Assembly: GCA_050729115.1 (NCBI GenBank)
Contig: JBOHKK010000001.1
Span: 2,947-66,946, forward strand
Source: Geminicoccaceae bacterium
GTDB taxonomy: Bacteria > Pseudomonadota > Alphaproteobacteria > Geminicoccales > Geminicoccaceae
DNA: 64,000 nt
Reading direction: 5' to 3'
Both the position numbers and the translations under genes were made by a program. Below the pieces are notes generated by a model that was given only the letters and a program-made list of their open reading frames with translations, made no database searches and was not told where the DNA came from. Shown one piece after another: positions 7,281 to 54,443 of this stretch (the first letter of the stretch is position 1; the number at the start of each line of letters is the position of its first letter).

Positions 7281-7297
7281 GAGCCGCTCCGCGGTGC

Positions 7298-16409: not shown

Positions 16410-17765
16410 TCAGATCAGATAGCCGAGGTCCGAAGCGGCGGAGGGATACGCGCTGACGAGCTTTCTAAGATCGGTCGCGGTGAGGCCGGTGCGCATCGCG
16501 AGCCCGAAGAAGTTGATCAGCTCGCTCGCCTCGGGGCCCAACAGGTGCGCGCCGAGAATGCGCGCCGTGCCCTTCTCGAGCAGCACCTTGGCCGCGGCAT
16601 GGGTCTCGCCGACCCGCTCGACGCTGTACCAGTCGCTCATGTCGGTGGTTTTGACCTCGACGTCGAGCCCCTGCGCGCGCGCCTCGGCTTCGTCAAGGCC
16701 GACCCGGGTCAGCTCCGGGATGGTGAACACGGCGCTCGGCACGCCGGTGTAGTCGGGCGTCTCGGTGTTGCCCTCGAGGAGGTTCGTCGCGACCACCGCG
16801 CCCTCCAGGCTGGCGACCGGCGTCAGCGGCGCTCCGGCGGTGGCGGCGGCGTCGCCGGCCACGTAGACCCGCGGGTTGGAGACGCTCTGCAGGAACTGGT
16901 TGACCGCGACGCCCTTCTTTTCGGCGCAGACGTTGCCTCGCTCGAGGTCCAGGCGCTCGAGTGCCGGCGCACGGCCCGCTCCGTGCACGACCAAATCCGC
17001 TTCGAAGGTCTGGTTGCGACCGTCGATCTCGGCGGTCACGCCCAAGCCTGTGCTGGTGCGCTCGATCGCTTCGACCGCCGCCTTCGCCCGGAAGTCGACA
17101 CCGAGAGCGCGGGTGCGCTCCAGAAGCTTTACGACCAAGTCCGGATCGAACGCCTTCAGCGGCCGCTCGCCGCGATCGAGGACGACCACCTCGGCGTCCG
17201 CCCGGGCCGCGAGATGCGCGAACTCGAACGAGACATAGCCGCCGCCGATGAACAGCACGCGCTGCGGCAGCTCGTCGAGCTCGAGAAAACGATCGCTTGT
17301 CGTCACGTGCTCAGCACCCTGGATCGGCAACGGCACGGGCTCGGCACCGCTCGCGATGACCACATGGCGCGCCTGCAGACGCTCGCCGCCGACCTCCAGG
17401 GCGTCAGCCGCGACGAACCGCGCGGTGCCTCTGTGCGTGACGATGCCCTTATCGGCGAAGGCCTTCTCTTTGCTGGCCGGCACCGGATCGGTGAAGCTGC
17501 GCTTGAAGCGCATCAGGCTCGGCCAGTCGATACGGACGCCCGGGTCGGCGATGCCCTTGCCGTGCAGGAGCCGGGCCGCGTCCACGACCTCGGCGCCGCG
17601 CCGAAGCACCTTCTTGGGGTCGCATCCGCGCAGCTGGCACGTGCCGCCATACGGCAGCTCGTCGACGATCGCCACCGACCAGCCGGCCGCACGGCAGCGA
17701 TTGGCAACCGTGCTTGCGGCAGCGCCGGTGCCGACCACGACCAGGTCGAAGGTGTCATCCATCAC
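16410..17765 (-). CDS. class-I pyridine nucleotide-disulfide oxidoreductase (glutathione reductase / dihydrolipoyl dehydrogenase-like)
   Basis: FAD fingerprint DLVVVGTGAAAS, redox-active disulfide GGTCQLRGCDPKK, NAD(P) fingerprint FIGGGYVSFEF. There is no C-terminal CC tail, so it is not MerA. The GTG at 17765 is immediately followed by an ATG at 17762. Confidence 0.85.
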   Translation of the reverse strand: MMDDTFDLVVVGTGAAASTVANRCRAAGWSVAIVDELPYGGTCQLRGCDPKKVLRRGAEVVDAARLLHGKGIADPGVRIDWPSLMRFKRSFTDPVPASKEKAFADKGIVTHRGTARFVAADALEVGGERLQARHVVIASGAEPVPLPIQGAEHVTTSDRFLELDELPQRVLFIGGGYVSFEFAHLAARADAEVVVLDRGERPLKAFDPDLVVKLLERTRALGVDFRAKAAVEAIERTSTGLGVTAEIDGRNQTFEADLVVHGAGRAPALERLDLERGNVCAEKKGVAVNQFLQSVSNPRVYVAGDAAATAGAPLTPVASLEGAVVATNLLEGNTETPDYTGVPSAVFTIPELTRVGLDEAEARAQGLDVEVKTTDMSDWYSVERVGETHAAAKVLLEKGTARILGAHLLGPEASELINFFGLAMRTGLTATDLRKLVSAYPSAASDLGYLI

Positions 17766-18570: not shown

Positions 18571-20216
<1,646 letters not shown>

Positions 20217-20220
<4 letters not shown>

Positions 20221-20942
20221 GAAGTCACCGCCAGGCCCGCGAGGCTCGGGGCGAAGATCGCGCGACCGGCCTGGAGTGCCTCATCGACCGACAGGCGAAA
20301 GCCCCGGGCCTCCGGATGGTGCTCCGCACGCCAGGCCTCCAGATGCGCGTCGTCGCAGAAGAAGGCGATGACGGTGCACATCGAGTTGGCTGCGCAGCCG
20401 TCCGTCCGGCGAATGCCCGACCAGACGACGGTCGAGCCTGGCCGGACGTCGGCCACCGCCCTGCTCCGATCGCTGGTCGCGATAGTGACCGGCGCGCCGC
20501 AGGAGCGGCAGCGCGACCGGATCTCGACGTCGCGTCCGTACATGTCGCCGGCGCCGAGAGCATCGATCGCGGATAAGGCATTCAGGGTTCGCTTCCCCAG
20601 GCTGACCCGATGCTCGGTGGCGCGATCCGTCCATGGATAGGCGCCGACGATGCGCTCGCCATCGGCATCGAGGACGACGAGGTCCCGTGCCTTGAGGCTC
20701 GCCAGGAGCGACCTGATCACGCTCTCGCGGACGCCGGCATGCCGTGCAAGGTCGGCGATCGCCGGCGCGCCGCCCTGCTCGGCGTAGAGGCGGAGAAGAG
20801 CGGTGCGCACGTCGTCCTCTGCGGGCGTGTAATCCCGCCACATACTCTCGATGCCGATCGCCTCGAGAATCGCGAGCAGGGCCTCGCGCGCCTGCGGTGA
20901 GGATACCGCCGCCCAGTCCGGGAACGTCACCCCAGGACGCAC
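20217..20942 (-). CDS. MerB-like (alkylmercury lyase family) protein, 5' end apparently severed by the IS
   Basis: The C-terminal half aligns by eye with MerB: LNALSAIDALG..RSRCRSCGAPVTIATS...SMCTVIAFFCDDAHLEAWRAEH versus MerB YAWCALDTL..SSHCAATGAPVSLTVS...FCCHVHFFAS. The GTG at 20940..20942 lies 6 nt from the IS end and has no RBS. Confidence 0.65.
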
Positions 20943-20948
20943 GTGATA

Positions 20949-22889
20949 GCTAGCCCGAAGTTACGTTGCGTAAAATGACATAGATCATTGATTCCAGGCA
21001 TGGATTTTGCCTAGCGGTGATTCTCGACTGGGAACGCGTCGATCAGGTCCTGGGCGCGGCGCTGGATCTCCGTGGGCGTGGTGATCTGGGTGAAGGTGGG
21101 GGCGTCGGGATCGGTCTTGAGGCGGCAGGTGTTGCGGCAGCGGGTGGCGAGCTCGGCGAGCAGGGTGTCGAAGCTGTGCAGCGGCAGGCCGTCCTCGGTG
21201 CGGCGGGTGGCCTTCTTGCGCTTGGCGTGCGGGGTAGGCGTCGCCGGGGCGACGGGGTCGCGGGTCTGGCGCTCCGGCTCCAGGGTGTCGTCGTCGAACA
21301 GCAGCGGCGCGAGAGCGCGGCGCAGGTGCCATTCGAGATAGGCGCTCAGGAGACAGAGGAAGACGTGGGCGCGGACCCGGCGCTCGTCGCGGTGGCGGAT
21401 CGGTCGGACCAGGATCTCGAGGCCCTTGAGGGTGCGAAACAGGCGCTCGACCTGGGCCAGGCCCTTGTAGGCGCGCACCGTGTCCGCGGCCGCGAGACGG
21501 GCCGCGGGCTCGCTGGTGCGGAGCACATAGATGCCGTCGAGGGCGGCCTCGGCGGCGATCGCCTGCTGGTCGCGGCGCCAGGCGAAGACGCCGTCGGCGA
21601 TGGCGAGCCGGAAGTGCTTGGCCACCTTGAAGCGGGCGATCACCCGGCCGACCATCTGGCCGATCGCGGCGGCCGAGAAGGGCGTCCTGGTCCGGCGTTG
21701 GACCTGGCGGGCGATCTTGGCCAGGTCCTTCTCGGTGGCGGCCAGGAGGGCCGCGCGCTTGCGCGCCCGCTCCTCGGCGAGCAGGGGATTGTAGCAGGCG
21801 ATCAGGCGCTCGCCCGGAAAGTCCGGTGCGGTGATCTCGGCCAGGTTCTGCTGGTCGAACAGCGAGAGCTGGAGGTGCTGGTGCGCGACCAGCTGGCGGA
21901 TGGCCGCTGACCTGAGGGCGGCGATCCAGCCGAGCTGGGGGTGTTCGCGCAGCCGCTCGATCTGGGTCTCGGTGCGCAGGCCGCGGTCGCCCACCAGGAC
22001 CACGCGCGCCAGCCCGAAGCGCTGCTTGAGCTTGTCCAGCTGGTCGGCGACGGTCGCCGGGTCGCCGGTGTTGCCCGGGGAGACCTCGACCGCCACCGGT
22101 CGGCCGCCGCGGCCGGTCAGCACGCCGTAGACCAGCTGGGTCTTGCCTTTCTTGCCGTCGCGGTTGTGACCGAAGCGCATGAGGGGACAACTCCGGCCCT
22201 CGTCGTAGCTGCTGGTCACGTCGTAAAAGACCGGCTGGCCGGCGCTCAGGTGCCGGCGGGCCAGGGCCTGCTCGATCCGCGCCTGGCGCGCGAGCAGCCA
22301 GTCCATGGCCCCATAGAGCTCGTCCACATCGGCCTCCTCGACGGCCAGTTCCTGCGCCAGGCTGGTGCTGTGCCAGAGCCGGGTGGTGGCGAGCTTGGAG
22401 GCGGGGTGGATCAGGCGCTCGAGGATCATCGCCAGGACCAGGTCGCGCTCGCGGCAGGGCTTGGCGGCGATCAGACGATCGAGGCCGAGGCGGCGCACCA
22501 TGGCCAGCAGCGCCGCGACATGGCCATGCGGCCACGAGCGTTCGATGGCAAAGGCGTCCTGGGCCGCGACCAGGCGCTCGCCCTTCAACAGGCGGCGCAG
22601 CGCCTGCACCTTGGCACCGGGCCAGTCGGTGAGATTGGCGAGGGTTCGCTTGCGGACCTTCTTGCCCTCGCGCCAGCCCTCGCGCAGCAGGATCGCGGGC
22701 CTCGATTTGCGGTTGGGGACGGTCTCGATGTACATGGGAACCATACTACCATAAACCTACCACCAATTCAATCCGAATAATCCCGTATACATGGGAACAT
22801 ACCGGTCGGCGCACAGGCCACCATCCGCTAGCAAATTCAACGCCATATGCGAACCTGACTCCTCAAGTTCAGGGCAACTTCGGGCTAGC
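20949..22889 (-). mobile_element. IS element (IS1634-like, IS4 superfamily), about 1.94 kb
   Basis: 14-bp perfect terminal inverted repeats: GCTAGCCCGAAGTT at 20949..20962 and AACTTCGGGCTAGC at 22876..22889. The sub-terminal regions are AT-richer and flank a single 577-aa transposase ORF. I could not identify a target-site duplication. Confidence 0.8.
21011..22744 (-). CDS. IS1634-family (IS4 superfamily) DDE transposase
   Basis: 577 aa. The N-terminus MYIETVPNRKSRPAILLREGWREGKKVRKRTLANLTDWP and the internal FYDVTSSY..., VLVGDRG and YKGLAQVERLFRTLK segments are typical of this transposase family. ATGs at 22744 and 22735. Confidence 0.85.
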   Translation of the reverse strand: MVPMYIETVPNRKSRPAILLREGWREGKKVRKRTLANLTDWPGAKVQALRRLLKGERLVAAQDAFAIERSWPHGHVAALLAMVRRLGLDRLIAAKPCRERDLVLAMILERLIHPASKLATTRLWHSTSLAQELAVEEADVDELYGAMDWLLARQARIEQALARRHLSAGQPVFYDVTSSYDEGRSCPLMRFGHNRDGKKGKTQLVYGVLTGRGGRPVAVEVSPGNTGDPATVADQLDKLKQRFGLARVVLVGDRGLRTETQIERLREHPQLGWIAALRSAAIRQLVAHQHLQLSLFDQQNLAEITAPDFPGERLIACYNPLLAEERARKRAALLAATEKDLAKIARQVQRRTRTPFSAAAIGQMVGRVIARFKVAKHFRLAIADGVFAWRRDQQAIAAEAALDGIYVLRTSEPAARLAAADTVRAYKGLAQVERLFRTLKGLEILVRPIRHRDERRVRAHVFLCLLSAYLEWHLRRALAPLLFDDDTLEPERQTRDPVAPATPTPHAKRKKATRRTEDGLPLHSFDTLLAELATRCRNTCRLKTDPDAPTFTQITTPTEIQRRAQDLIDAFPVENHR

Positions 22890-22909
22890 CGAGCGGCTGT
22901 CGTCGGCCA

Positions 22910-23203
22910 TCAGTCGCCTCCTTGTCCGATCACCCGTGAGGGAAAGCCGACGCCAGCGGTGGCCTCGGTTAGGGCTGCCACGGTCGTCCTGGCATCATCG
23001 AACGTCACCACTGCCATCTTTTCGGTGTAGGAGACCTCGGCGCGCGCAACTCCCGGCACCTCCTGCAGAACCGTCCGCACGATGTAGGGGCAGCTCGCAC
23101 AGGTCATGCGGTCGACGGCGAGCGTCACGGTGCGCTCGGCCGCGGTGGCGGCGAGGCTGGCGAGGAGGGTCGCGGACACTGCGGCGGCGAGGAGACGGGA
23201 CAT
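22910..23203 (-). CDS. merP: periplasmic mercury-binding protein MerP
   Basis: ATG at 23201..23203 with an AAGGAG RBS. Signal peptide, then VTLAVDRMTCASCPYIVRTVLQEVPGV (HMA fold with the MTCxxC motif). Confidence 0.9.
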   Translation of the reverse strand: MSRLLAAAVSATLLASLAATAAERTVTLAVDRMTCASCPYIVRTVLQEVPGVARAEVSYTEKMAVVTFDDARTTVAALTEATAGVGFPSRVIGQGGD

Positions 23204-23223
23204 TCGGTGGATCTCCTTCTCTT

Positions 23224-23625
23224 TCAGGTGCCGAGGAGCGCAGGCGCGACGTAGGGGAAGGCAAGCGCGGCGGCGACCAGTCCGGTCGCCAGCCACAAGC
23301 TGGTCTTGACGATGCGGTCCGACAGCGGCCGCGCGCAGGCTGCGCCGTCAGTGCAGGCAGGCTTTGGCCGCAGGTAGACGAGCCAGAAACCAGCCCCGAG
23401 GAAGGCGAGCGTGATCGCAACGAAGATCGGCTGGTATGGTGAAAGCGCCGTCAGGGTGCCGATCCAGGCGCCGCCGAGCCCGAGGCTGAACAGCACGAGC
23501 GGCAGGATGCAGCAGGACATCGACGCGAACGCGCCCAGCATACCGCCGGCCGCGAGCCATGCCCGCCGCTTCTCCGTCCGCACCGTCCGACCGTGCGGCG
23601 GCTGCTTCAGCTGAATCGCCTGCAT
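23224..23625 (-). CDS. merT: mercury transporter MerT
   Basis: 133 aa. TM1 reads SMSCCILPLVLFSLGLGGAW (CC pair). A second Cys pair lies in the cytoplasmic loop (KPACTDGAACA). This is MerT architecture. Confidence 0.88.
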   Translation of the reverse strand: MQAIQLKQPPHGRTVRTEKRRAWLAAGGMLGAFASMSCCILPLVLFSLGLGGAWIGTLTALSPYQPIFVAITLAFLGAGFWLVYLRPKPACTDGAACARPLSDRIVKTSLWLATGLVAAALAFPYVAPALLGT

Positions 23626-23655
23626 CGCCCTTGACCTTTTCTTTGCGACACCAGG

Positions 23656-23686
23656 AACCTAGGTCCTGTAGCGGGTACAGGTTCAA
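23656..23686 (-). promoter_or_regulatory. MerR-type mer promoter/operator (19-bp spacer with dyad)
   Basis: Minus strand: TTGAAC - ctgtacccgctacaggacc (19 nt) - TAGGTT. The spacer contains the inverted repeat CCTGTA-N5-TACAGG. It lies between divergent merR and merT. Confidence 0.7.
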
Positions 23687-23728
23687 GGGGCTTTGTGGGA
23701 TCCGAGTTCACGGATACGGGAGCGGGCG

Positions 23729-24124
23729 ATGCGGCGTGGTGAGCTGGCGGAGCGGAGCGGCTGCAACATCGAGACGGTCAGGTTCTACGAGAAGCAGGGG
23801 CTGCTGCCGGCTCCGCCGCGCACGGCCGGCGGTCACCGCGACTATGCTTTCGAGCACCTGAAGCGGCTCACCTTCATCCGTCGCTCGCGTGAGCTCGGCT
23901 TCACGCTTGGAGAAGTGCGCAGTCTGCTCGGGCTGGTCGATGGCGGTGACTGGACTTGCGCTGAGGTCAGGGCGATGACCCTGGAACACCTCGCGGACGT
24001 CCGGCGCAAGATCGCCGACCTCGAGCGGCTCGCTCGAATCCTCGAAGAGATGGCGGCGCGGTGCGAGGGCGGCGCCGTACCCGAGTGCCCGATCGTCGAC
24101 GCCCTCTTACAGGATCCTCTCTAA
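23729..24124 (+). CDS. merR: Hg(II)-responsive transcriptional regulator MerR
   Basis: ATG at 23729 with a GGGAG RBS. HTH is ELAERSGCNIETVRFYEKQGLL. Three Cys are spaced C-35-C-8-C (TCAEV...ARCEGGAVPEC). Divergent from merTP. Confidence 0.85.
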   Translation: MRRGELAERSGCNIETVRFYEKQGLLPAPPRTAGGHRDYAFEHLKRLTFIRRSRELGFTLGEVRSLLGLVDGGDWTCAEVRAMTLEHLADVRRKIADLERLARILEEMAARCEGGAVPECPIVDALLQDPL

Positions 24125-24253: not shown

Positions 24254-26707
24254 TCAGGCAGGCTGTGGCGCCGCCTCCCCGACCGGGCGGCCGACACTCA
24301 GGATGGCGTCAAAGAACAGCCGCGGGCGGCCCCAGAGCGAGTTGAAGAAGATCGTGGTCACGCTGACCGCCATCGCCGCCATCGCCCAGACCGGGTAGAG
24401 CAGCCCGGTCGCGGCGATCGGGATGCCGATGCCGTTGAACATGAAGGCGAGCGTCACGTTCTGCACCATCTTGCGGTAGCCGCGCCGGCTGGTCTCGTAG
24501 GCGAGGGGCAGCGCGTCGAGCCGGTTCGACAGGATGATGATATCGGCCGAATCGATCGCGATGTCGGTGCCGCCGCCCATGGCGATGCCGATATCGGCCT
24601 GCATCAGCGCCGGCGCGTCGTTGATCCCGTCGCCGACCATCGCCACCCGGCCGCCGCCCTGGAGTCGGCGCACGATCTCGGCCTTCTGATCCGGCAGCAC
24701 GCCCGCGTGAACCTCCTCGATCCCAGCCTCCTGCGCAATGCGCCGCGCTGCGCGCTCATTATCACCCGTGAGCAGCACGGTCCTGAGCCCGGCCTTGCGC
24801 AGCGTGGCGACCGTCTCGACGGCATCCGGTCTCAGTCCGTCCCCTAGGGCAAGGAGCCCCAGGGCGCGCCCGTCGCGGCCGACCGCGATCACCGTCCGCC
24901 CGGCATGCTCGAGCGCGCTGATCCGCTCGGTGAGGGGCGCGAGATCGATGCCGCGATCGGCCACGAACGTCGGGCTGCCAACCACGACCTCACCGCTGTC
25001 GATGCGGGCGATGACGCCCTGGCCCGGGACCGCCTCGAAGGAGTCGACGTCCGGGGGAACCACGCCGCGATCGAACGCGGTCCTGACCACCGCCTGTGCC
25101 AGAGGATGCTCGGAGGACGCCTCGGCGGCCGCCGCGACGCCGAGAAGGTCGTTCTCGCCGCCATCGAGCGTTTCGATCTCCTGAACGACCGGACGCCCTT
25201 CGGTGAGCGTGCCCGTCTTGTCCAGGATGACGGTGCGCACCAGACGGAACCCCTGGAACGCCTCGCCGGTGCGCATCAGAATGCCGTGCTCGGCGGCCTC
25301 GCCGGCGCCGCGCACGATCGACAGCGGCGCCGAGATGCCGACCGCGCAGGGATAGCCCATGACCAGGACGCTCAGGCCGGCGAACACCGCCCGCTCGACG
25401 TCCGGCTGTCCCGCGAAGAGCCAGGAGCCGAAGAACCAGGCGATGAAGGCCAGGCCCGAAAGTGCCAGAACGGTCGGCGTATAGACGCGCAGCACCCGGT
25501 CGACCAGATGCAGGAGCCCGGGCTTGAGCGCCCGGGCGTCTTCGACCTCGCGGATGACCTTGTGCAGAAAGCTTTCCTCGCCGACCGCGGTCACCTTCAC
25601 CAGAAGCGTACCGGTGCCGTTGATCGAGCCGCCGATCACCGCGTCGCCTTCCTGCTTCTCGACCGGGATCGGCTCGCCGGTGACGAGCGCCTGGTCCACG
25701 GCCGAATGGCCGCTGACCACCTGCCCGTCGACGGGGACGCGCTCGCCCGGGCGGATCCGCACCAGGTCTCCCACGACCACCGCCTCGATCGGCACCTCCA
25801 GCTCTTCGCCGTCGCGCTCGACCCGGGCGGTCTCCGGCTGCAGGTCCAGCAGCCGCTTCACCGCCTGGGAGCTTCGCGTTTTCACGATCAGCGACAGCCA
25901 CTCGGAGAAGATGTGGTAGGTGGTGATCAGCACCGAGACGGCGAAGAACGCTGCGGTCGGATAGTTGGGCGGAGCGAAGATCAGTCCGATGAGGCCACCG
26001 ACGAGGCCGGCGAAGGCGCCGGCTTCGAGCAGTACGTGCTGATTGAGGATGCCCCGGCGCAGCGCCTGGACGGCCATGACCAAGATGTGCTGTCCGACGA
26101 CGAACACCAGCGTGACCGCCAGCGCTGCCGCCAGCCAGGGGATTGCTTGGCCGAGCAGGCCTTGCTGCTTGAGGAGCAGCAACCCCAGCGCTACCGCGCT
26201 CACGCCCACAGCGCCGCCTACCGCCGTCCAAAGGCCACGCGCCCGCAGGACGAGGAAGATGAAGCCCAAGAGACTGGCGATCACGATGCCGTGCAAAAGG
26301 ATCGTGGGGGCGGCGGTGAAGTTGCCGATCAGTGCGATGGTGAGGAGGCTGAAGGCGGTGGCGATCAGGAAGCGACGGCCTTCCCGCACCAGATCCTGCT
26401 CCTCCTCCTCGAACGGCCGGACCTTGCGCGGGTCATGGATCGTATAGCCGATGTCGCGGAGGGTCTGCAGCAGCGCCTCGGCGCGGATGACGGCGGGGTC
26501 GAACTCGACCAGCGTCTGCTCATGCGTCAGGCTCACGGCGACCCTATCGACGCCGGGCAGGCGCCCGAGCGCCTTCTCGATCGTGCCGGTGCAGAGCGAG
26601 CAGTGCAGCCCGCCGATGCGGGCGCGGATACGCGTCCGGTTCGGGCGGCTCGCTGGCTCCTCGCTCCATGGGCGGTGAATTGGCTCGGACACTGCTGCCG
26701 TGCTCAT
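24254..26707 (-). CDS. heavy-metal P1B-type ATPase with N-terminal HMA domain and atypical YPC transmembrane motif
   Basis: ATG at 26705..26707 with a GGAGG RBS. HMA is GGLHCSLCTGTIEKAL. Also [27 protein letters not shown] and GDGINDAPAL. The metal-binding TM helix reads MGYPCAVGISAP instead of CPC. The last TMs read NVTLAFMFNGIGIP and AMAAMAVSVTT. Confidence 0.88.
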   Translation of the reverse strand: MSTAAVSEPIHRPWSEEPASRPNRTRIRARIGGLHCSLCTGTIEKALGRLPGVDRVAVSLTHEQTLVEFDPAVIRAEALLQTLRDIGYTIHDPRKVRPFEEEEQDLVREGRRFLIATAFSLLTIALIGNFTAAPTILLHGIVIASLLGFIFLVLRARGLWTAVGGAVGVSAVALGLLLLKQQGLLGQAIPWLAAALAVTLVFVVGQHILVMAVQALRRGILNQHVLLEAGAFAGLVGGLIGLIFAPPNYPTAAFFAVSVLITTYHIFSEWLSLIVKTRSSQAVKRLLDLQPETARVERDGEELEVPIEAVVVGDLVRIRPGERVPVDGQVVSGHSAVDQALVTGEPIPVEKQEGDAVIGGSINGTGTLLVKVTAVGEESFLHKVIREVEDARALKPGLLHLVDRVLRVYTPTVLALSGLAFIAWFFGSWLFAGQPDVERAVFAGLSVLVMGYPCAVGISAPLSIVRGAGEAAEHGILMRTGEAFQGFRLVRTVILDKTGTLTEGRPVVQEIETLDGGENDLLGVAAAAEASSEHPLAQAVVRTAFDRGVVPPDVDSFEAVPGQGVIARIDSGEVVVGSPTFVADRGIDLAPLTERISALEHAGRTVIAVGRDGRALGLLALGDGLRPDAVETVATLRKAGLRTVLLTGDNERAARRIAQEAGIEEVHAGVLPDQKAEIVRRLQGGGRVAMVGDGINDAPALMQADIGIAMGGGTDIAIDSADIIILSNRLDALPLAYETSRRGYRKMVQNVTLAFMFNGIGIPIAATGLLYPVWAMAAMAVSVTTIFFNSLWGRPRLFFDAILSVGRPVGEAAPQPA

Positions 26708-26834
26708 TGCTGAGACCTCCGGTTCCAAACCGTGGTCGGCGAACCCGCCGACATCGATCGAATTGAATGTGGGGTCCCTACCTACATACGGAGTCAAGCT
26801 CTCTTGCTTCGCTGAACGGCGGTGTTTGCGCGCG

Positions 26835-27509
26835 CTACGCCTTGATGTCGACGAGCAGGCCGAAGCCGATCGACCAGAGGCCCAACGCGATCAGCAGCAA
26901 GCCCGTCCAGAACGGCAGCCGCCTCGACAGTCTCGCCAGCCAGTCGAGCATCCGCCGCGCCGGCTCGAGGAGCACCGCCAGGACGAGGGGCAGAGAGAGC
27001 GCGAAGCCGAAGAGCCCGAGAGAGACGAACCCGGCGGCGAGCGTCGCGCCGGCGACGCCGCCGGCCGCCGCCGTGCCAAGCAGGGCGAAGATCAAGGGCG
27101 CTGCGCACGCCGGGATGTTGAGGCCGAACAGGACGCCCAGACCCGTGGAGCCGCCTACCCCGGAGATCCGGTCCAGGCGAGGCCCCAAGGAGATCATCAA
27201 GACGTTCGCCCTGCCCGCGAGGTAGATGGCCCCGATCGCGACATAGACCGCGCCGAGACCGATCCAGGCGCCCTTCTGGAGGCCCAGGAACATCGCGCCG
27301 ACCACGACCGCCAGCATCCCCAGCGCCCCGATGAAGAGCGCGCGGGCGGCGGCAAACGCCATGACCTGCGCGAGCTTGGCCGCCGCCGTCCTGCCCTCGA
27401 GATACTTAATGAACACCAGGCTCGATCCGATCGAGCACGGCTCGATAAAGCCCAACAGGCCGAGCCCGATCGGCAGCACCACAAGGTTGATCAGCCCGAA
27501 GTCGGTCAC
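26835..27509 (-). CDS. CcdA/DsbD-transmembrane-domain family protein (DsbD_2-like)
   Basis: 224 aa, about 6 TM, with two conserved Cys in TM helices (FIEPCSIGS and NIPACAAPL). Confidence 0.75.
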   Translation of the reverse strand: MTDFGLINLVVLPIGLGLLGFIEPCSIGSSLVFIKYLEGRTAAAKLAQVMAFAAARALFIGALGMLAVVVGAMFLGLQKGAWIGLGAVYVAIGAIYLAGRANVLMISLGPRLDRISGVGGSTGLGVLFGLNIPACAAPLIFALLGTAAAGGVAGATLAAGFVSLGLFGFALSLPLVLAVLLEPARRMLDWLARLSRRLPFWTGLLLIALGLWSIGFGLLVDIKA

Positions 27510-27724
27510 GGCTTACGAGCCGGAACCCGATAGCCACCCTTTTCGATCACCCTGACCAACTGGTCTTCGCTGGCGGTCTGCGGGTCATAGAGGATTCGCG
27601 CCCGGCGGTCCTTGTAGGAAATCTCGGCGGCCCGTACGCCCGGCTGCGCATCGATCAGAGCTTTGATCGTCTCAGCGCAACCCCCGCAGTGCATGCCTTC
27701 GATCGTGAGCGTGACGGATTTCAT
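27506..27724 (-). CDS. cytoplasmic heavy-metal-associated (HMA) domain protein (CopZ/MerP-like, no signal peptide)
   Basis: 72 aa. MKSVTLTIEGMHCGGCAETIKALI carries the GMxCxxC motif. Start and stop overlap the neighbouring genes. Confidence 0.88.
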   Translation of the reverse strand: MKSVTLTIEGMHCGGCAETIKALIDAQPGVRAAEISYKDRRARILYDPQTASEDQLVRVIEKGGYRVPARKP

Positions 27725-28197
27725 GTCAGTGCTCCGTCGTGTGCTTGAGAAGCGCTCCTCGACCGCGGTTGCCGGACGACCTCGAGCGCTTCAAGGATCG
27801 TGCACGCCCGCAGCGCCCCGTGACCCGGGCACGCCGCGATGATGTCTTCGAGGGCGCCACGAATCCGCTCCAGCTCGGCGATCTTCCGATGGACTTCCTT
27901 GACCTTCGCCGTGGCTCTTTCGCGCACGTCCCTGCAATCGGCCGAAGGATCTGCCCGCAGCGACAGCAGTTCTTTGATCTCGCGCAGCGAGAAGCCGATC
28001 TGCTGGGCCTGCCGGACGAACTGGATTCGCCTCACCGTATCGGTCGAGTAAACCCGATAGCCGGCGCCATCGGGCTTCGGCGGCTGCTCGATCAGCCCGC
28101 GCCGCTCGTAAAAGCGAATCGTCTCGACGCCGACGCCCGCCGCCCGGGCCGCCTTGCCAATCGTCACTGCTTTCATCGTCTGTTCTCGACCGTTCAC
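27721..28197 (-). CDS. MerR family metal-responsive regulator with Hg/Pb-type three-Cys spacing
   Basis: HTH is IGKAARAAGVGVETIRFYERRGLI. Cys are spaced C-35-C-9-C (SADCRD...AACPGHGALRAC). The GTG at 28197 has an AGGAG RBS. An alternative ATG is at 28176. Confidence 0.85.
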   Translation of the reverse strand: MNGREQTMKAVTIGKAARAAGVGVETIRFYERRGLIEQPPKPDGAGYRVYSTDTVRRIQFVRQAQQIGFSLREIKELLSLRADPSADCRDVRERATAKVKEVHRKIAELERIRGALEDIIAACPGHGALRACTILEALEVVRQPRSRSASQAHDGALT

Positions 28198-28210
28198 GCA
28201 CCCCGCTCCT

Positions 28211-28241
28211 GATATAGGGTCCGTATCATGGTCCGGAGCAA
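28211..28241 (-). promoter_or_regulatory. putative MerR-type promoter/operator for the merR2-HMA-ccdA-ATPase operon
   Basis: Minus strand: TTGCTC - 19 nt - TATATC. On the plus strand the spacer reads TCCGTATCATGGTCCGGA. This resembles the classical mer operator dyad TCCGTAC-ATGA-GTACGGA, with an imperfect right arm. Confidence 0.4.
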
Positions 28242-28272: not shown

Positions 28273-28485
28273 TCAACGCACGAAAAATGCCACCGCCGTC
28301 TTCGAGGCAATCGTTGCGTCCAGAAGCCGTCCGTCTCGAACGTGGATCACGCGGTCCGCCAGCCGGGCCAGGTCTTCCGCGTGCGTCACCACGAGCACTG
28401 TCCGCTCCGTCAAGATTTCCGGCAGAAGCCCGTAGATCATCTGACCGGATCGCGAATTGAGATTGCTTCTGCCGACTCAGCCGGA
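28273..28485 (-). pseudogene. remnant of an ABC transporter ATP-binding protein (C-terminal about 65 codons)
   Basis: My own translation: GRSNLNSRSGQMIYGLLPEILTERTVLVVTHAEDLARLADRVIHVRDGRLLD...*. This is the region after Walker B, including the H-loop VTH, of a LolD/MacB-like ATPase. An in-frame TGA lies directly upstream, and no Walker A or signature region is intact. Confidence 0.6.
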
Positions 28486-28826
28486 TCGGCCTTTGGGCCG
28501 AGGCGATGCAGGTCGCAGCGGCTATAAACGATGTCAGCTCGACGGCGGGTGGATGGCGCTCGGCCAGGAAGCGCCTGGCTTTGCGCAGTGAAGGCGGCGC
28601 CCTCCCGCGATCGCCGGGGCGAGGCGCTGGAGCAAGCCTATAGTGACTTCGATGATGTTCTCTCAGGCGGTGACGTGAGTGAACGGCGGCGTCGCCGTCG
28701 CGCTGGCGCTTGGCTGGGCGCAGATCGCCGTCGCAGCAGCTGCCGATCGCGTCATCCGGCCGTCGGACGGAGCACGGGCCGGAAGCGGCCCATTTGAGCA
28801 AGCGGACATCCGCCCGGTACGGCGGA

Positions 28827-29387
28827 TCAGGCGTAGGCCTCATCGCAGCGCCGGGCGGCCACTCGTAGCGTCAGCGCCGTCCCCGCCAGCAGGAAGACGA
28901 ACGCCGCCGGGATCATCAGCCCCATGAGCGTGACCAGCGATGCCGTGACCTGAACGCCCAGCAGGACGAACAGCATGGGCGCGCAGCACGCGCTGCCTGC
29001 GAGCAGCCCCGGCAGACCCGCAAGCACCCCCGTAGCCGGCCTGAGGCCGCAGGCGACGGCGCAGCGTCGGGCGATGCGCACCAGTGCGATCTGGCATCCG
29101 GTGAGCAGGCCGAGCGCCAGGCCGATGGCGATGTTCATCGGCGAGATCAGCCACACCAGGTAAGGCGTCTCCAGGATCGCCACCGCCTCGAACTGGAAAG
29201 GCGCCCGCTCGCGCAGGAGCAGACTCTCCCAGTTCGGCACTATGAAAATCGAGGTCGGGCGAGAGGCACCATCGATCGTCAGATCAGCCACGGCGATCTG
29301 GAACACCGCCAGATATACCAGTGCGATGCCCCAGACGAGGACTTGGCTGGCCGGGTCGGTGAGAAGACGCCGCAGGATCTCACTCAT
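28827..29387 (-). CDS. hypothetical Cys-rich polytopic membrane protein
   Basis: The ATG at 29385..29387 overlaps the DUF3179 gene's stop by 8 nt. Cys sit in TM helices (LLTGCQIAL, RRCAVACGL, AGSACCAPMLF). Confidence 0.6.
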   Translation of the reverse strand: MSEILRRLLTDPASQVLVWGIALVYLAVFQIAVADLTIDGASRPTSIFIVPNWESLLLRERAPFQFEAVAILETPYLVWLISPMNIAIGLALGLLTGCQIALVRIARRCAVACGLRPATGVLAGLPGLLAGSACCAPMLFVLLGVQVTASLVTLMGLMIPAAFVFLLAGTALTLRVAARRCDEAYA

Positions 29388-30441
29388 GAACTGCCGTCTC
29401 GGGATAGAAGGCCGCCCAGGCGAACCACATCGCCTGGAAGGCATTTACTGGCTCGAGGGCATCGCCACCGGACCAGGAGACATTGTAGGGACCGGCGCCG
29501 TCGATCTGCGCGTCTGCCTTCGTGCGTCCGCGGAAGACGTAGCCGGTGTCGAGAATCTTGTCGTAGAGAGCCGTGAAGACCTCGCCGTTCGCCTTGAGCT
29601 CCAGCCGACCGGCCGCGCGCAGGCTCCCGAGTCTAACGGCGACCGCTGCATCCCGGGTGCGTGCGCCGATGAAATCGGATTTTGGCGGGGAGCGGCGGTC
29701 GTCGTGCATCAGCGGGAACATCGTGCTGCTGTCCGGCTCGTAATAGCCCGAGGGCGGGTTGTAGGCGCCGTACGGGTCGCGATGGTAGTTGCGCGCAAAG
29801 CCCGTATCGGTAGACAGCACCTCCGTGTCGGGATAGGCGGCTCGCCAGCGCTGCCAAGTGGTCCAGACCACAGGTCGTTCGACCAGTGCCGTGCCGCGGT
29901 GCGGGCCGCGGATGCCGATCGCGAGCACCTGCGGGAACCAGGTATCGGTGTCGCGGTCGTACATGATCAGGTTGCTGTTCACCAGCCGGCCGGAGACCCC
30001 AAACTCTGTCTGTGCGCGCTCGAAGGCGAGTGCCGTGCCGGTCAGCGGGCAGTAGGTCACGGCAAGCCCGAGGCCGCCCACGGTGTCGTTCACGATCTCA
30101 TGCCAAACCACGACGCGCTGCGGATAGGCGCGGGCGACCCCGTTCTCGACCAGCCCGAACACGATGTCGCCGCCGTCGAGGTAACCGTCAGCATCCGCCG
30201 CCGTCCAGAATTTGGGGTGGTCAATGGCGGGGATCCCGTCCTTACCGGGGCCGCCCGACAGCTTGGCGTTGTCGTAGTCCTGCGGCTGCGACGGCATCAG
30301 GCGTCCTCCGGGGAGCGTGGGGTACGGGGCCGCACCACTCGCAGCCATCGTGGCGAGAGGCAAGCCGGCCAGCGACGCCCAGGAGGCCAGGCCGGCCGCG
30401 CGACCCATCAGCACCCGGCGTGTCAGATCCTCATGAATCAT
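29380..30441 (-). CDS. DUF3179 domain-containing exported protein (Tat-like signal)
   Basis: 353 aa with a GGAGG RBS. DGIPAIDHPKF...VARAYPQRVVVWHEIVNDTVGG..LAVTYCPLTGT...SGRLVNSNLIMYDR.TDTWFPQ matches my memory of the DUF3179 signature. Confidence 0.75.
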   Translation of the reverse strand: MIHEDLTRRVLMGRAAGLASWASLAGLPLATMAASGAAPYPTLPGGRLMPSQPQDYDNAKLSGGPGKDGIPAIDHPKFWTAADADGYLDGGDIVFGLVENGVARAYPQRVVVWHEIVNDTVGGLGLAVTYCPLTGTALAFERAQTEFGVSGRLVNSNLIMYDRDTDTWFPQVLAIGIRGPHRGTALVERPVVWTTWQRWRAAYPDTEVLSTDTGFARNYHRDPYGAYNPPSGYYEPDSSTMFPLMHDDRRSPPKSDFIGARTRDAAVAVRLGSLRAAGRLELKANGEVFTALYDKILDTGYVFRGRTKADAQIDGAGPYNVSWSGGDALEPVNAFQAMWFAWAAFYPETAVHE

Positions 30442-32110: not shown

Positions 32111-34645
32111 TCAGACCACGTAGCGATCCCAACCACCGTAATGTTCGGAGCTCCGCTTGCCGCGCGGCAGACTGAGAGCGATCAGCGCCGCCCCGGCGAG
32201 CACACCGGCCCAGGCGCCGAGCAGGGTGGCGCCCGGCAGCAGCCAAGGCGCGGCGATCAGCCAGAGGCCGAACAGGACATTGATGAAGCGCAAGGGCCGC
32301 GCGACCTCGGCCATGGCGCTCACCGCCACGGTGATGGCGAGCGCGCCGATCAAGTGGTCACTGTCCGCCAGCGGCGGTTCGGTGCCGAAGATCAGGCGGC
32401 TGAACATGAGCCAGACGCCCAAGGCGGCGCTCGCAACCAGCGTCCAAGGCACGGTCACCCCCCAGGCCATCGCTGCCCCCATCGTCCGCAGATCCGCCCC
32501 GAAGCCTGGTCGCTCACTCTCCGTGGCGCCCGGCATGGCGCCGCCCTGGAAGAAGGTACGCCAGAAGGGCTTGCCTGCCCGGTGGCTGTGCAGGAGGAAC
32601 TGCCCCATCGCCACGAGCTCGTCGAGCGCGAAGGGGATCATGATCAGCATAGCGAGCGCTGCGAGCAAACAGAGCGTGCAATAGGTACCGATGACGATTG
32701 GCTGGATGATGATGAAATAGATGCTGACGACGCCGAGCGGCACCACGACGATACCGAACAGGACCACCATCCAGGGCATAGTGCGCCAGCGGCGGCGGTC
32801 GCCCATGACGCCCATCAGCACCTCGAACATGTAGCTCACCGCACCGAGGCCGGCGTCGGCGATCGGCCAGGCCTTCGAAACGTCCGAGGTGATGATGACC
32901 TCGGTGCCGTTCAGGCCGCCTCCACCGGAGAAGAACGGTTCCCAAACCCCGTCGACGTGCCCGAGCTGGTAGGCGGCGAGGGAGCGGGCGATGACGAAGC
33001 CGACAAAGCCAAGCGCGATGATGGGCAGGCGCTGCAGGTAGGTCGATGGGGAGTAGGTCCAGCCGGGCGGGGTATCTGAGCTGTCCATCATCCCTTCGCG
33101 GCTCATGCCCGGCATCATCGGCACCAGGATGGCGAAGGCGATGACCAGCGCGCCGATGAAGGTGTCGTTGGCGTAGACCGCAGCGCTCGGCGACCAGAAG
33201 ACGAGCGGCGCGAACAGGAGCCAGATCCCCACTGCGGTATTCGCCCATTGCGCCCACGCGAAGCGCTGAGAGAGAGACAACGCACCGAATGCCATGATCA
33301 GCAGGCCGCTGGTCAGGTCGCTCCAGGCGGTGAGTGCGCTGCGCAACCCGGGCTCCCACAACCCGCGCTCCTCGGTCACGCGTAGCACGCCTTCGCCGAA
33401 GGCCGCATGGTCGAACGTGCCGAAGACGAACGGACTGGCCGCCAGCCAGGCGCCGAGCATGATGTTGAGAAAGTGCACCCAGAGCATGCCGAGGTGCATC
33501 CGCCGCATCCCCTCCATGTGCTCGCGCACCATCTCCTGATGCTCGAGCGGATCGGCGGTGGGCTGCTCCTGCTGATCCTGCTCGACCCGCTTCGCCGCCA
33601 CCCTGGCGGCGTTCAGCTTGTTCGCCCGATACCAGCCGACCGGATCGGCGTCGAGCGCTGCGACGATTTTCGGCAGCGTCCGCCGCAGGGAATGCTTCGG
33701 CTCCCAGCCGAGGACGCTCCGGGCACGAGAGAGGTCGAGCTCGTAGTGGTCGTCGGCGATCTCGACCATCCACGGCTTGATGAACGGATCCTCCTCCAGA
33801 ATCTCGTCCTGGACCCACGCGCCGGTCCTGGCTAAGGCTTTCGGGACTTGGCGTGTCTCCCACTCCTCATCGTGGATGAGCCAGCCGAGCTCGCGCTGAA
33901 TCTCGCCGAAGCTCATCGTCTCCGGCTCGCCGAGGAGGAGCGGAAGCTCGGGCGGCAGCTCCTTGCGGCGCTCGACGATCCGCAGCAAAGCGTCCGTAAG
34001 GTCGTCGAGATGCAAGAAGGGCTGTCCGGTCCGGAGGTCGCCCGGATAGGAATGACTGATGAGCTTGCGCTCATAGATCCGAGAAATCTGTCGAGCGAGG
34101 AAGGCTGAACGGCAGAGATCGTCGTAGACCCCGGCAGGACGCACCAGAACGGCCGGGATGGAACCGCGCTGCTCTTGGATCAGCCGCTCCGTTCGGATCT
34201 TGGATTCCCGGTACGGGAGCTTTGGGTCGATTGGCCAGTCCTCGTCGATCGGTTGCGCACGTTTGCCGGGCGCATGGACCAACATGGTGCTGGCGAAGAC
34301 AAACTGCTCGACCTCGAAGGATTGCAGGCCGCGCAACAGCCGTTCGGTGCCACGAACGGTGACTTGTTCGTATTTCGGATTTGGCTCACCAGTAAGGTCG
34401 AAATAGGCGGCGAGGTGGATTACCGAAGCAATGCGCTCGCCATAGGCCGTTCGCACCCGCCGAAGCGCGGCCTCGACACTCTCTTCGGAAGTCAGATCGA
34501 TGCAGATGCATTCGGCGGCCGGTGGTGGATGAGGCGGCGTCGCACGGTCCAGGCCGACCAGGGCGAAATGGTTGCCCAGCTTTTCGATCAGCGCCGCGCC
34601 GATGAAACCGCTGCTGCCGGTGACGACTACCGTGTCCTTTTCCAT
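32111..34645 (-). CDS. fusion protein: NAD-dependent epimerase/dehydratase (SDR) domain plus polytopic membrane region with SPW-repeat-like and VKOR-like (CxxC) segments
   Basis: 844 aa. N-terminal VVVTGSSGFIGAALIEKL...YRESK (extended SDR). After about residue 385 there are at least 10 hydrophobic helices. Several carry the W-L-x-x-(S/A)-P-(W/F) pattern seen in the SPW protein at 37239..37670. One segment, ...TEVIITSDVSKAWPIADAGLGAVSYMF...IGTYCTLCLLAALAML, resembles the VKOR loop plus the CxxC helix. Confidence 0.7.
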   Translation of the reverse strand: MEKDTVVVTGSSGFIGAALIEKLGNHFALVGLDRATPPHPPPAAECICIDLTSEESVEAALRRVRTAYGERIASVIHLAAYFDLTGEPNPKYEQVTVRGTERLLRGLQSFEVEQFVFASTMLVHAPGKRAQPIDEDWPIDPKLPYRESKIRTERLIQEQRGSIPAVLVRPAGVYDDLCRSAFLARQISRIYERKLISHSYPGDLRTGQPFLHLDDLTDALLRIVERRKELPPELPLLLGEPETMSFGEIQRELGWLIHDEEWETRQVPKALARTGAWVQDEILEEDPFIKPWMVEIADDHYELDLSRARSVLGWEPKHSLRRTLPKIVAALDADPVGWYRANKLNAARVAAKRVEQDQQEQPTADPLEHQEMVREHMEGMRRMHLGMLWVHFLNIMLGAWLAASPFVFGTFDHAAFGEGVLRVTEERGLWEPGLRSALTAWSDLTSGLLIMAFGALSLSQRFAWAQWANTAVGIWLLFAPLVFWSPSAAVYANDTFIGALVIAFAILVPMMPGMSREGMMDSSDTPPGWTYSPSTYLQRLPIIALGFVGFVIARSLAAYQLGHVDGVWEPFFSGGGGLNGTEVIITSDVSKAWPIADAGLGAVSYMFEVLMGVMGDRRRWRTMPWMVVLFGIVVVPLGVVSIYFIIIQPIVIGTYCTLCLLAALAMLIMIPFALDELVAMGQFLLHSHRAGKPFWRTFFQGGAMPGATESERPGFGADLRTMGAAMAWGVTVPWTLVASAALGVWLMFSRLIFGTEPPLADSDHLIGALAITVAVSAMAEVARPLRFINVLFGLWLIAAPWLLPGATLLGAWAGVLAGAALIALSLPRGKRSSEHYGGWDRYVV

Positions 34646-34966: not shown

Positions 34967-35446
34967 TCAATCCCATTCCATGCCCGCTTCGCCGACCTCG
35001 GCTCGTCCGCGTCGGGCACCGTTCGCTCGACCGGCTCCGTTCGCCCAGCCACTCTCCTCGGGATCGGCAAGATCCCTCAGGATCGGGCAGTCGGGTCGGT
35101 CGTCACCGTCGCAGTGGTCCGCCAGATGCTTCACCGTATCCCGCAGTGCCTCGAGCTCTGCGATCTTTGCCTGGAGCTCGGCCACGTGGTCGAGGGCGAC
35201 GCGCTTCACCTCGGCGCTGGACCGGTCGCGGTCGCGCCACAATCCCAAAAGCTGCTCGACGCGCTCCACCGAGAACCCAAGACTTCGCGCCCGTTTGATG
35301 AAGGGCAGCGTATGGACGTCCGAGGTGGTGTAGGCGCGATAGTTGCCGGTGGTCCGCCTGGCCTCGGAAATCAGCCCGATGTCCTCGTAGTAGCGGATGG
35401 TCTTCGCCGGAAGGCCAGACGTCCTTGCGGCTTCTCCAATATTCAT
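34967..35446 (-). CDS. cueR: Cu(I)-responsive MerR-family regulator CueR/HmrR
   Basis: MNIGEAARTSGLPAKTIRYYEDIGLI HTH. C-terminal metal loop CDGDDRPDC (C-8-C, as in CueR). GGAAGGAGG RBS. Confidence 0.88.
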   Translation of the reverse strand: MNIGEAARTSGLPAKTIRYYEDIGLISEARRTTGNYRAYTTSDVHTLPFIKRARSLGFSVERVEQLLGLWRDRDRSSAEVKRVALDHVAELQAKIAELEALRDTVKHLADHCDGDDRPDCPILRDLADPEESGWANGAGRANGARRGRAEVGEAGMEWD

Positions 35447-35714
35447 GGATCCTCCTTCCCTTAGGGCTGTCGGGCGTACAGTTCACAAGGTGCGACCAAT
35501 TGATGCCTGTGCTGAGGCCGCTGAAGGCCGTGTCTGCGCGCAATCACTGCGCACCAGGCGATTGTCATGGCCGCCCTTTCGAGATGCGTCCGCATGATGC
35601 GCACCTGAGTCAACGACGTGGCGATTGATTCCTGCTCGTCGTCAGAGGTGAAATCGATCCTGCCGCGATGCCAGACGTCCTGCTTCTCCGTTCCGGCCCG
35701 GCTCGGGAGAAAGA

Positions 35715-50652: not shown

Positions 50653-50965
50653 CGTCGCAGGAGGGTTAGCGCAGAGGATTGGTAGAGCGACGAACGATCT
50701 CTTGCACAGGCTCGGGGTGGATGCGGACCGCGGTTGCGGCCTTTGTGGGTGGTTTTCGCTACTGCGGTCCGGGGCGCACGGGGCCGAGGCACCTATGAGG
50801 CAAAGGCGCTCCAACGCTCGAATGGACCCTTCCCTGGCCACCGCCCTTCCACACGTTCGAGGAACTACCGCAGGTCAACTAGGGATGCGCTGGCAGTCCA
50901 GACGACCGTGATGGTCTCCGTCCGCCGTCAGGACGGCGCGCAGCAGTGAGCGAGGAAATCAAGCC

Positions 50966-54270: not shown

Positions 54271-54443
54271 CATCGTAGCCGCTAGGCTAGGCCGGCGACG
54301 ACCTTCTTCCGGAGAGTTTCGCGCCCGCCTCGAGGAGGCGGCCCCAGGCCATCACCCGGGCGGGTACACCGGCGAAGAAGAGCTTCTCCGCATGGACCAG
54401 CAACCGAGCGCGAGTGGCTCTGGCAAAGCGTCGAGGGAAGTGG

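Follow-up and report, generated by a model that had tools for sequence, protein, structure and literature searches.

The locus at positions 24254-28241 of a 64,000-nucleotide stretch of a Geminicoccaceae bacterium genome (contig JBOHKK010000001.1; hereafter the window) encodes, on the minus strand and in this order, a MerR-family regulator (MerR2), a small HMA protein, a membrane protein (mem224) and a P1B ATPase carrying a Tyr-Pro-Cys (YPC) triplet in its ion-binding helix. We read it, with confidence about evenly divided, as an accessory module that responds to Hg(II) and belongs to mercury-resistance islands, widespread and laterally mobile, whose pump would extrude Hg(II) (we infer both substrate and direction). 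A first-pass annotation, made from the sequence alone, had proposed a thiophilic-metal system of undefined specificity under a Hg/Pb-type MerR; the present analysis supports this description, and the evidence now points towards mercury because the operator is that of merR/merT promoters, merA/merT are linked to the pump in about half of the related loci with full flanks, and haloarchaeal copies lie next to merA.

A broader proposal is put forward more tentatively, namely that the YPC clade may be a dedicated ATP-driven transporter family for Hg(II) or single-thiolate RHg+, working alongside MerT/MerP-MerA or, in some organisms, instead of them, spread among bacteria and into haloarchaea by transposons, integrative and conjugative elements (ICEs) and plasmids, and placed under a second, orthogonal Hg-sensing MerR branch whose regulon includes MacB-type ABC exporters and DsbD-like proteins. 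A MerR-controlled P1B pump operon is an already known kind of system; as far as searched, no description exists of the pump clade with its ion-site signature, of the operator that it uses or of its systematic linkage to mer genes.

A conserved YPC signature in a P1B ATPase

The listed reading frame of the ATPase opens at a TTG (26797) and encodes 847 residues. This start was rejected, as the TTG forms the first bases of the TTGACT -35 hexamer of an internal promoter (P2, see below); for this reason, and because homologues have 816-820 residues and GGAGG precedes ATG 26707, the latter was taken as the start, giving 817 residues. The protein matches PF00122, PF00702 and PF00403 and scores 570 bits with NCBIfam TIGR01525 (cut-off 346), which identifies it as a P1B ATPase; it also passes the Cu-subfamily model TIGR01511 (455 against a cut-off of 397) and the Cd-family model TIGR01512. 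As the first-pass annotation had stated, all catalytic motifs are present, and the segments GYPCAVGISAP, FMFNGIGIP and MAVSVTT are read in the pump sequence.

Cu(I)/Ag(I) pumps of the P1B-1 class are characterised by CPC in M4, YN in M5 and MxxSS in M6, a signature absent from the present pump, which has YPC, FN and MAVSV instead, and from the whole YPC clade (YPC, FN and MxxSV). Zn/Cd/Pb pumps (P1B-2) have a conserved Lys in M5; this residue is missing from the pump (NVTLAFMFNGIGIPIAATG), as is the Asp (DxG) of M6 (PVWAMAAMAVSVTTIFFNSL). Alignment to CopA of Archaeoglobus fulgidus (AfCopA) and to a second, CPC-type P1B pump of the window (CopA) agrees with the earlier remark that the last two helices fit neither signature, and extends it to the pump: of the residues of CPC, YN and MxxSS, the leading Cys, the Tyr and the final Ser have been substituted, and the other Cys, the Asn and the Met are retained. 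The position that we take to be that of the entry-site Met, following the numbering of LpCopA, is occupied by Gln-His. A conservation map against the CPC pump of the window reveals further invariant residues peculiar to the YPC pumps (His224, Glu228, Tyr264, His265 and Glu269), so that the membrane signature reads LNQH224VLLE228, Y264-H265..E269, G-Y452-P-C454, F-N758 and M776/M779..S782-V. In classical reviews the variable residue of the xPC/CPx motif is given as Cys, Ser or His only (PMC8456098), and with Tyr at this position the pump matches neither P1B-4 (SPC) nor the other listed xPC/CPx classes.

By sequence and by solved structure, the closest relatives are the Cu(I) P1B-1 pumps (CopA of A. 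fulgidus and Legionella pneumophila, ATP7A/B), the nearest solved structure being AfCopA (463 bits, against 314 for ZntA and 270 for a P1B-4 pump). Shared with these pumps are the order of domains (HMA, membrane helices, A domain, and P/N domains with DKTGT, SEHP and GDGxNDxP), a small cytoplasmic HMA chaperone as partner, the M5 Asn, the M6 Met and the second M4 Cys; in contrast, the YPC pump has YPC/FN/MxxSV for CPC/YN/MxxSS and Gln-His at the entry site, and the regulator of its system is a three-Cys MerR acting with a mer operator, not CueR or CsoR. With the P1B-2 pumps (ZntA, CadA, PbrA) the system shares MerR-family regulation, whereas ZntA is more distant in sequence and has a CPC motif and an M6 Asp that the YPC pump lacks. 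The role of this Asp in ZntA has been described, and, among P1B pumps, only those of the P1B-2 class have been demonstrated to bind Hg(II) and to translocate it at the expense of ATP (PMC10246665).

Relative to CopA of the window, bacterial YPC pumps contain a poorly conserved 41-residue insertion (residues ~127-181, window ~26165-26329), which, on the basis of hydropathy and a moderate AF2 model (pLDDT 69), is predicted to add two membrane helices on the N-terminal side of the usual core, ten in all. Haloarchaeal YPC pumps (759 residues; e.g., positions 5992-8268 of related locus L091) are without it.

The YPC triplet was flagged as unusual in the first-pass annotation, and proves to be a conserved clade signature that extends to haloarchaea. 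It is present in all 120 closest database homologues, with the pattern (M/L)GYPCA(V/I/L)G(I/V)SAP, and also in Thalassobaculum plasmid copies and in a Haloarcula marismortui copy (48% identical); among the top 150 of 1.84 billion searched cluster representatives, 21 have YPC and 124 have CPC. Across cluster representatives YPC co-varies with FN in M5, M..SV in M6 and LNQHVLLE in M1, and in a neighbour-joining tree rooted on the CPC pump of the window and built without bootstrap, the 16 full-length YPC sequences all group together in a single clade that no other sequence enters. Midpoint rooting was uninformative, the root falling inside the YPC group. The YPC pumps constitute a distinct P1B ATPase clade derived from the Cu(I)-pump lineage; close homologues are ~75% identical across phyla, which suggests lateral transfer.

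Full-text literature searches found no functional study of the YPC pump family. The possibility, allowed for in the first-pass annotation, that YPC is the signature of a known, characterised subfamily received no support beyond one mention, that of the metagenomic clone CopAL6, described as 'CopA-like' and reported to have YPC (Li et al. 2022); it is the only published YPC P1B ATPase found (PMC11082258). Tested with copper only, CopAL6 raised copper accumulation and lowered copper resistance in E. coli (PMC11082258). It resembles the present pump in the YPC triplet of the ion-binding helix and, in a comparison by description only, differs from it in carrying HMA domains N- and C-terminally and in its seven predicted helices.

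MerR2, the mer operator and recurrent partners

Pfam and NCBIfam scans confirmed the MerR, HMA and E1-E2 ATPase/HAD domains at the locus. MerR2 (Pfam MerR/MerR_1/MerR-DNA-bind) has, counted from ATG 28176, cysteines at positions 81, 116 and 125, i.e., at spacings of 35 and 9, which the first-pass annotation had recognised as those of Tn21 MerR and not of CueR; this is borne out by alignment to Tn21-type MerR (43% identity, all three Hg-ligand cysteines aligned as equivalents of Cys82, Cys117 and Cys126) and by the invariance of the three cysteines in 48 of 48 homologues, which also conserve a CPGxGxLxxC loop and the recognition helix GVGVETIRFY (GVNVETIRFY in Tn21/Tn501 MerR). Where the dimerisation helix begins, MerR2 has a Cys and CueR the Ser that is typical of +1 sensors; the loop has 9 residues in MerR2 and 8 in CueR. 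The top NCBIfam model for MerR2 is the Hg-MerR model TIGR02051, with CueR (117 bits) and ZntR (116 bits) close behind.

Both promoters of the locus carry the operator of Tn21/Tn501-type mer systems, a TCCGTA-N6-TACGGA dyad in a promoter with a 19-nt spacer. On the minus strand P1 reads TTGCTC-CGGACCATGATACGGACCC-TATATC, with a 19-nt spacer in which the dyad TCCGGA-CCATGA-TACGGA (28220-28237; TCCGTATCATGGTCCGGA) has one mismatch to the mer dyad. Such a promoter, with a mer-like operator, was what the first-pass annotation had described; the dyad recurs, again with one mismatch, as TCCGTA-TGTAGG-TAGGGA (26775-26792) at P2 (TTGACT-CCGTATGTAGGTAGGGACC-CCACAT), in the 127-bp non-coding gap between the mem224 and pump genes. 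With at most one mismatch allowed, these are the only two matches in the window, where shuffles expect 0.04, and none of 100 shuffles reached two.

The internal promoter bears on the earlier description of the locus as a four-gene co-directional operon. The four genes and the tight overlaps of the first three (4 nt each for merR2/HMA and HMA/mem224, from the coordinates of the reading frames) stand, while the single transcription unit was rejected on account of the mer-type promoter in the gap; the locus is accordingly described as two MerR-type transcription units.

The same dyad occurs 56 times in 1.45 Mb of related loci, with perfect copies at many of them and at canonical merR/merT promoters. 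It precedes MerR2 homologues in 32 cases (32 of the 80 related loci examined), immediately precedes the pump gene in 10 and genes for MacB-like ABC permeases in 5, and has 4 copies at canonical Tn21-type merR/merT or related mer promoters. This distribution indicates that MerR2 uses the classical mer operator. Since the merR1/merT promoter of the mer operon next to the locus has a different dyad (CTGTA..TACAG), MerR1 and MerR2 are probably orthogonal. There are also differences from Tn21/Tn501: MerR2 falls under the NCBIfam equivalog cut-off, merR2 is the first gene of its operon and co-directional with its targets where classical merR is divergent, those targets are a P-type ATPase, an HMA protein and a CcdA-like protein and not merTPA, and the neighbouring merTP-merBA genes are under a separate MerR (merR1) with another operator.

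An extra mer dyad was also observed in related locus L083 (14770-16140; likewise L015 at ~14497 and L017 at ~15177), before a small operon whose products are two HMA proteins, one of them membrane-anchored or secreted, and a DsbD-like protein of 229 residues that has CPC in helix 1; this operon may be an uptake-type module in the same regulon.

The genomic company of the pump was surveyed in 80 loci from different species (L-numbers designate these related loci), which were scored with a protein panel; 46 of them have at least 8 kb on both sides and make up the full-flank subset. A mer gene lies within ~10 kb of the pump in 24 of these 46 loci, and merA in 20. The linkage takes several forms: Afipia pOC167 has merA-HMA-merT followed further on by HMA-pump-MFS-MerR-Trx-CcdA-MerT-MerP, Marinobacter pSMR5 has merAPT ~7 kb upstream (within 8 kb) and then CcdA-pump-HMA, in Delftia-type ICEs the whole set adjoins merRTPCAB, and in Haloarcula and Halobacterium plasmids the YPC pump is found 0.7-1.6 kb from merA.

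MerR2 was identified in 47 of the 80 loci. Within the full-flank subset it is present in 26 loci and a second type of regulator in 18, both together in one locus only. Loci without MerR2 (L016, L022, L023, L028, L031, L034, L037, L041, L042, L078, L080 and others) have a promoter TTGACC-TTGGAG-N4-CTCCAAG with a 19-nt spacer before HMA-pump, and a regulator with Cys86/87, Cys122 and Cys132 that is best matched by a ZntR-like model; two alternative sensors thus serve the same pump.

An HMA gene is found no more than 400 nt upstream of the pump in 45 of the 80 loci, and further upstream where mem224 intervenes. The HMA protein of the window is without a signal peptide and opens directly with the first strand (MKSVTLTIEGMHCGGC); the motif of its family is mostly GMHC(D/G)GC. 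Also found repeatedly near the pump are an MFS transporter, a thioredoxin-like protein, an ABC exporter of MacB-like type and a GDCCVxC protein; the last is exemplified by a 76-residue Cys-rich protein (NCBIfam NF041374, 104 bits) at 3943-4173 of L003, with homologues in L013, L022, L038, L053, L058 and L059, all of them mercury-linked clusters.

The first-pass annotation had described mem224 as a DsbD_2/CcdA-like two-Cys membrane protein and as a non-standard partner of such a pump. The layout agrees with this description, mem224 resembling CcdA/DsbD carriers and ArsG-like permeases in size (~225 residues) and in its six hydrophobic segments, and also in having one invariant Cys next to Pro in helix 1 (E23-P24-C25) and one in helix 4 (P133-A134-C135-A136-x-P138). 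The family assignment does not follow, as no Pfam or NCBIfam match was obtained, including to DsbD_TM/DsbD_2, even at E <= 10. More than 2000 homologues exist, named 'cytochrome c-type biogenesis protein' by JGI and 'cytochrome c biogenesis protein CcdA' elsewhere. Comparison with the DsbD_TM-positive proteins of sister loci gave a weak match restricted to the C-terminal half (hhalign probability 67%, E 5e-5), BLASTP reached E 0.002, and Foldseek searches of the PDB with an AF2 model (pLDDT 68) returned nothing below E 0.26, mostly unrelated transporters. Overall, mem224 appears CcdA/DsbD-like in design and is a putative member of that family. As to partnership, the earlier statement is refined: mem224 occurs in 14 of the 46 full-flank loci and a DsbD_TM-type protein in 18, both in one locus only, so that one or the other is found in 31, i.e., recurrently. 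In contrast with CcdA/DsbD systems, the operon in the window includes no thioredoxin-like partner; sister loci have a thioredoxin together with a DsbD-type protein.

Substrate and direction of transport

The mechanism that we propose for the module would start with the binding of Hg(II) to the three cysteines of MerR2, which would untwist both promoters and thereby switch on merR2-hma-mem224 and the pump gene. The cytoplasmic HMA protein would capture Hg(II) and pass it to the N-terminal HMA domain or the entry site of the pump, which would hold it by one thiolate (Cys454) and by Met/Tyr/His/Asn donors and expel it to the periplasm, driven by ATP. Being weaker and more labile than a bis-thiolate site, such a one-thiolate site would allow release of Hg(II). 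For ZntA, a departure from linear bis-thiolate coordination of mercury has been argued to aid release in turnover (PMC10246665), and by analogy the YPC site would depart further from this geometry. As for mem224, it might either carry reducing power outward for periplasmic Hg-binding thiols or itself be an Hg(II) permease, and in fuller modules the next transport step would fall to a MacB-type ABC exporter controlled by the same operator; in the window the ABC gene is truncated.

Several points weigh against mercury export. PbrR-type Pb sensors have the same Cys spacing as MerR2, whose score of 134 bits with TIGR02051 is below the equivalog cut-off of 150.85, and about half of the related loci have a different regulator, best matched by a ZntR-like model, with the operator TTGGAG-N4-CTCCAA. 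Metal-resistance genes cluster on islands in general, and the Thalassobaculum plasmid copy of the pump sits among copper-resistance genes. Chemically, Hg(II) prefers two thiolates and the pump site offers one; physiologically, pumping Hg(II) into the periplasm would seem to run counter to the neighbouring operon, in which MerT/MerP serve import. Finally, literature searches found no experiment with mercury on any member of the YPC family, and the CopAL6 result, the only experiment found on any YPC protein, hints at copper handling or inward transport, although the architecture of CopAL6 differs and its membership of the clade is conjectural.

The alternative that fares best, which we nonetheless regard as unlikely, is a variant Cu(I), Ag(I) or Au(I) exporter whose proximity to mer genes would mean only that metal-resistance genes of all kinds gather on mobile islands. 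In its favour are the closeness to the structures of Cu(I) pumps (AfCopA over ZntA), the TIGR01511 match, the copper-resistance neighbours in Thalassobaculum, the altered copper accumulation caused by the YPC clone CopAL6 and the second P1B pumps at some of the same loci. However, the family as a whole has lost three of the six classical Cu(I) ligands to other residues, and Gln-His stands at what we take to be the entry-site Met position; moreover, the sensor has a Cys in place of the Ser of +1 sensors and a longer loop than CueR, its operator equals the mer operator and is not of CueR type, and the window already contains a standard CPC/YN/MxxSS pump.

Close behind in our ranking, and likewise improbable, is a mercury system of another kind, in which the pump (with or without mem224) imports Hg(II), delivered via the HMA protein to MerA, or moves RHg+. 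Here the haloarchaeal merA loci are suggestive, having a YPC pump and an HMA protein and no annotated MerT/MerP, and the MerA reading frame of the window as called (432 residues) has no HMA domain match, so that a separate HMA protein could serve it. CopAL6 raised metal accumulation, MerT is present at 3 of the 14 mem224 loci against 20 of the 46 loci overall, the single M4 Cys matches the one-thiolate chemistry of RHg+, and merB is found in the window and in 7 of the 80 related loci. Yet this linkage to merB is weak beside that to merA, and MerT or MerC is already present in 17 of the 20 merA-linked loci; furthermore, export is the direction of those characterised P1B pumps that have cytoplasmic HMA partners, and transport into the cell by P1B pumps is documented only for rare cases such as HmtA (PMC8456098).

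A shade lower again, and also doubtful, stands export of a divalent metal of borderline character, such as Pb(II), Cd(II) or Zn(II), under a PbrR/CadR/ZntR-like sensor. Such an exporter would lack the CPC, the M5 Lys and the M6 Asp of Zn/Cd/Pb pumps, would answer to a mer dyad unlike the PbrR, CadR and ZntR sites, and would be linked to merA, merT and merP (linkage to cad, czc and pbr was not systematically checked). It is favoured by the 35/9 Cys spacing common to PbrR, by the alternative regulator of other loci, which best matches ZntR models and has an operator resembling the ZntR type, by the pass with the Cd-family model TIGR01512, and by the new conserved His and Glu residues of M1/M2, which would suit harder divalent ions.

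That YPC is a sequencing error, or the mark of a decaying pseudogene of an ordinary CPC copper pump, was rejected and retains practically no weight: a single base change does turn a Cys codon (TGY) into a Tyr codon (TAY), but the reading frame is intact with all catalytic motifs, and YPC recurs in every close homologue, in plasmid copies from several genera and in haloarchaea, and co-varies with other changes of the membrane site.

Mercury resistance is taught as an exception among metal resistances, in that Hg(II) is imported and reduced, not pumped out. A survey of mer genes makes no mention of any ATPase or efflux component (PMC8261052), a preprint on selenoproteins and organomercury does not mention P-type ATPases, FtsX, MerR or DsbD, and a paper on the mercury transcriptome of rhizobia offers no usable detail on adjoining genes. 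The YPC pump family has many members and is well conserved; it is coupled to the mer operator and found beside merA in both bacteria and archaea. If it indeed moves mercury, the mer paradigm would gain a transport arm and the P1B classification a new ion-site chemistry (one Cys with Tyr/Met/His), and there would be a change in the annotation of these genes, whose present labels ("Cu+-exporting" or generic "cation-translocating" ATPases) would then distort the counts of copper- and mercury-resistance genes in metagenomes. MerR2 and its operator are, in addition, a candidate orthogonal part for biosensors. Should the substrate instead be Cu, Ag or Pb, the pump would still represent an uncharacterised P1B subgroup, a far less surprising outcome.

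Neighbourhood of the locus in the window

Going from merA towards merR2, the gene order in the window is merA, merB, IS, merP, merT, merR1, pump, mem224, HMA and merR2, followed by an ABC ATPase remnant (Table 1). The DDE transposase gene stands between merT-merP and merB-merA, and its presence may leave the latter two genes cut off from the promoter of merT. A megablast search of plasmid sequences with the window's DNA returned no near-identical record.

Table 1. Positions of the genes and promoters of the locus and of the adjoining mer operon, in window coordinates.
Feature	Position	Strand	Description	Basis
YPC-type P1B ATPase	24254-26707	-	817 aa; N-terminal HMA (GLHCSLC), DKTGT, TGE, SEHP, GDGINDAP	
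Promoter P2	26766-26797	-	-35 TTGACT (26797-26792), 19/20-nt spacer, weak -10 CCACAT or CACATT	-10 assigned by eye
mem224	26835-27509	-	224-aa membrane protein, six hydrophobic segments; overlaps HMA gene by 4 nt	hydropathy
HMA protein	27506-27724	-	cytoplasmic HMA metallochaperone, 72 aa, GMHCGGC; overlaps merR2 by 4 nt	Pfam HMA, 9.4e-15
merR2	27721-28176	-	151 aa from ATG 28176; alternative GTG start 28197	
Promoter P1	28211-28241	-	-35 TTGCTC (28241-28236), 19-nt spacer, -10 TATATC (28216-28211)	sequence read
MacB-type ABC ATPase remnant	28273-28464	-	last ~55 codons	72% identity over 50 aa to Delftia ABC subunit
Adjacent broad-spectrum mer operon	18571-24124		own, different operator (CTGTA..TACAG)	Pfam, NCBIfam
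merR1	23693-24124	+	divergent from merT	
merT	23625-23224	-		Pfam/NCBIfam MerT
merP	~23203-22910	-		Pfam/NCBIfam MerP
IS transposase	22744-21011	-	577 aa, DDE; inside mer operon, between merP and merB	DDE_Tnp_1
merB	20942-20217	-		Pfam/NCBIfam MerB
merA	19869-18571	-	45% identical to Delftia MerA	Pyr_redox

Related loci L015, L017, L056 and L083 have an intact FtsX-FtsX-ABC set directly upstream of merR2, in related loci under the same operator, of which only the remnant is left in the window. Beyond it lie ~360 bp (28465-28826) with no clear reading frame, which together with the remnant suggest a deletion or recombination scar upstream of merR2.

The next gene (28827-29444, minus strand) encodes a 205-residue membrane protein with no family match and with a membrane-embedded Cys-Cys pair (GSACCAPML) that recalls small mercury transporters; it is adjoined by a gene for a DUF3179 protein (29380-30441, minus strand), and a DUF3179 protein is also found near the pump in L089. 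On the other side of the mer operon, just past merA, a second pyridine nucleotide-disulfide oxidoreductase (16410-17765, minus strand) is 30% identical to MerA.

Altogether the window looks like a multi-metal resistance island. The second P1B pump (54414-56912, plus strand) has the standard CPC/YN/MSLSS signature together with N-terminal YHS and HMBD domains, and two further MerR-family genes are present (35054-35452, minus strand; 50912-51361, plus strand). An 844-residue reading frame (32111-34645, minus strand) fuses an NAD-dependent epimerase/dehydratase, a vitamin K epoxide reductase (VKOR) domain and SPW repeats, an unusual fusion in a metal/thiol-redox neighbourhood.

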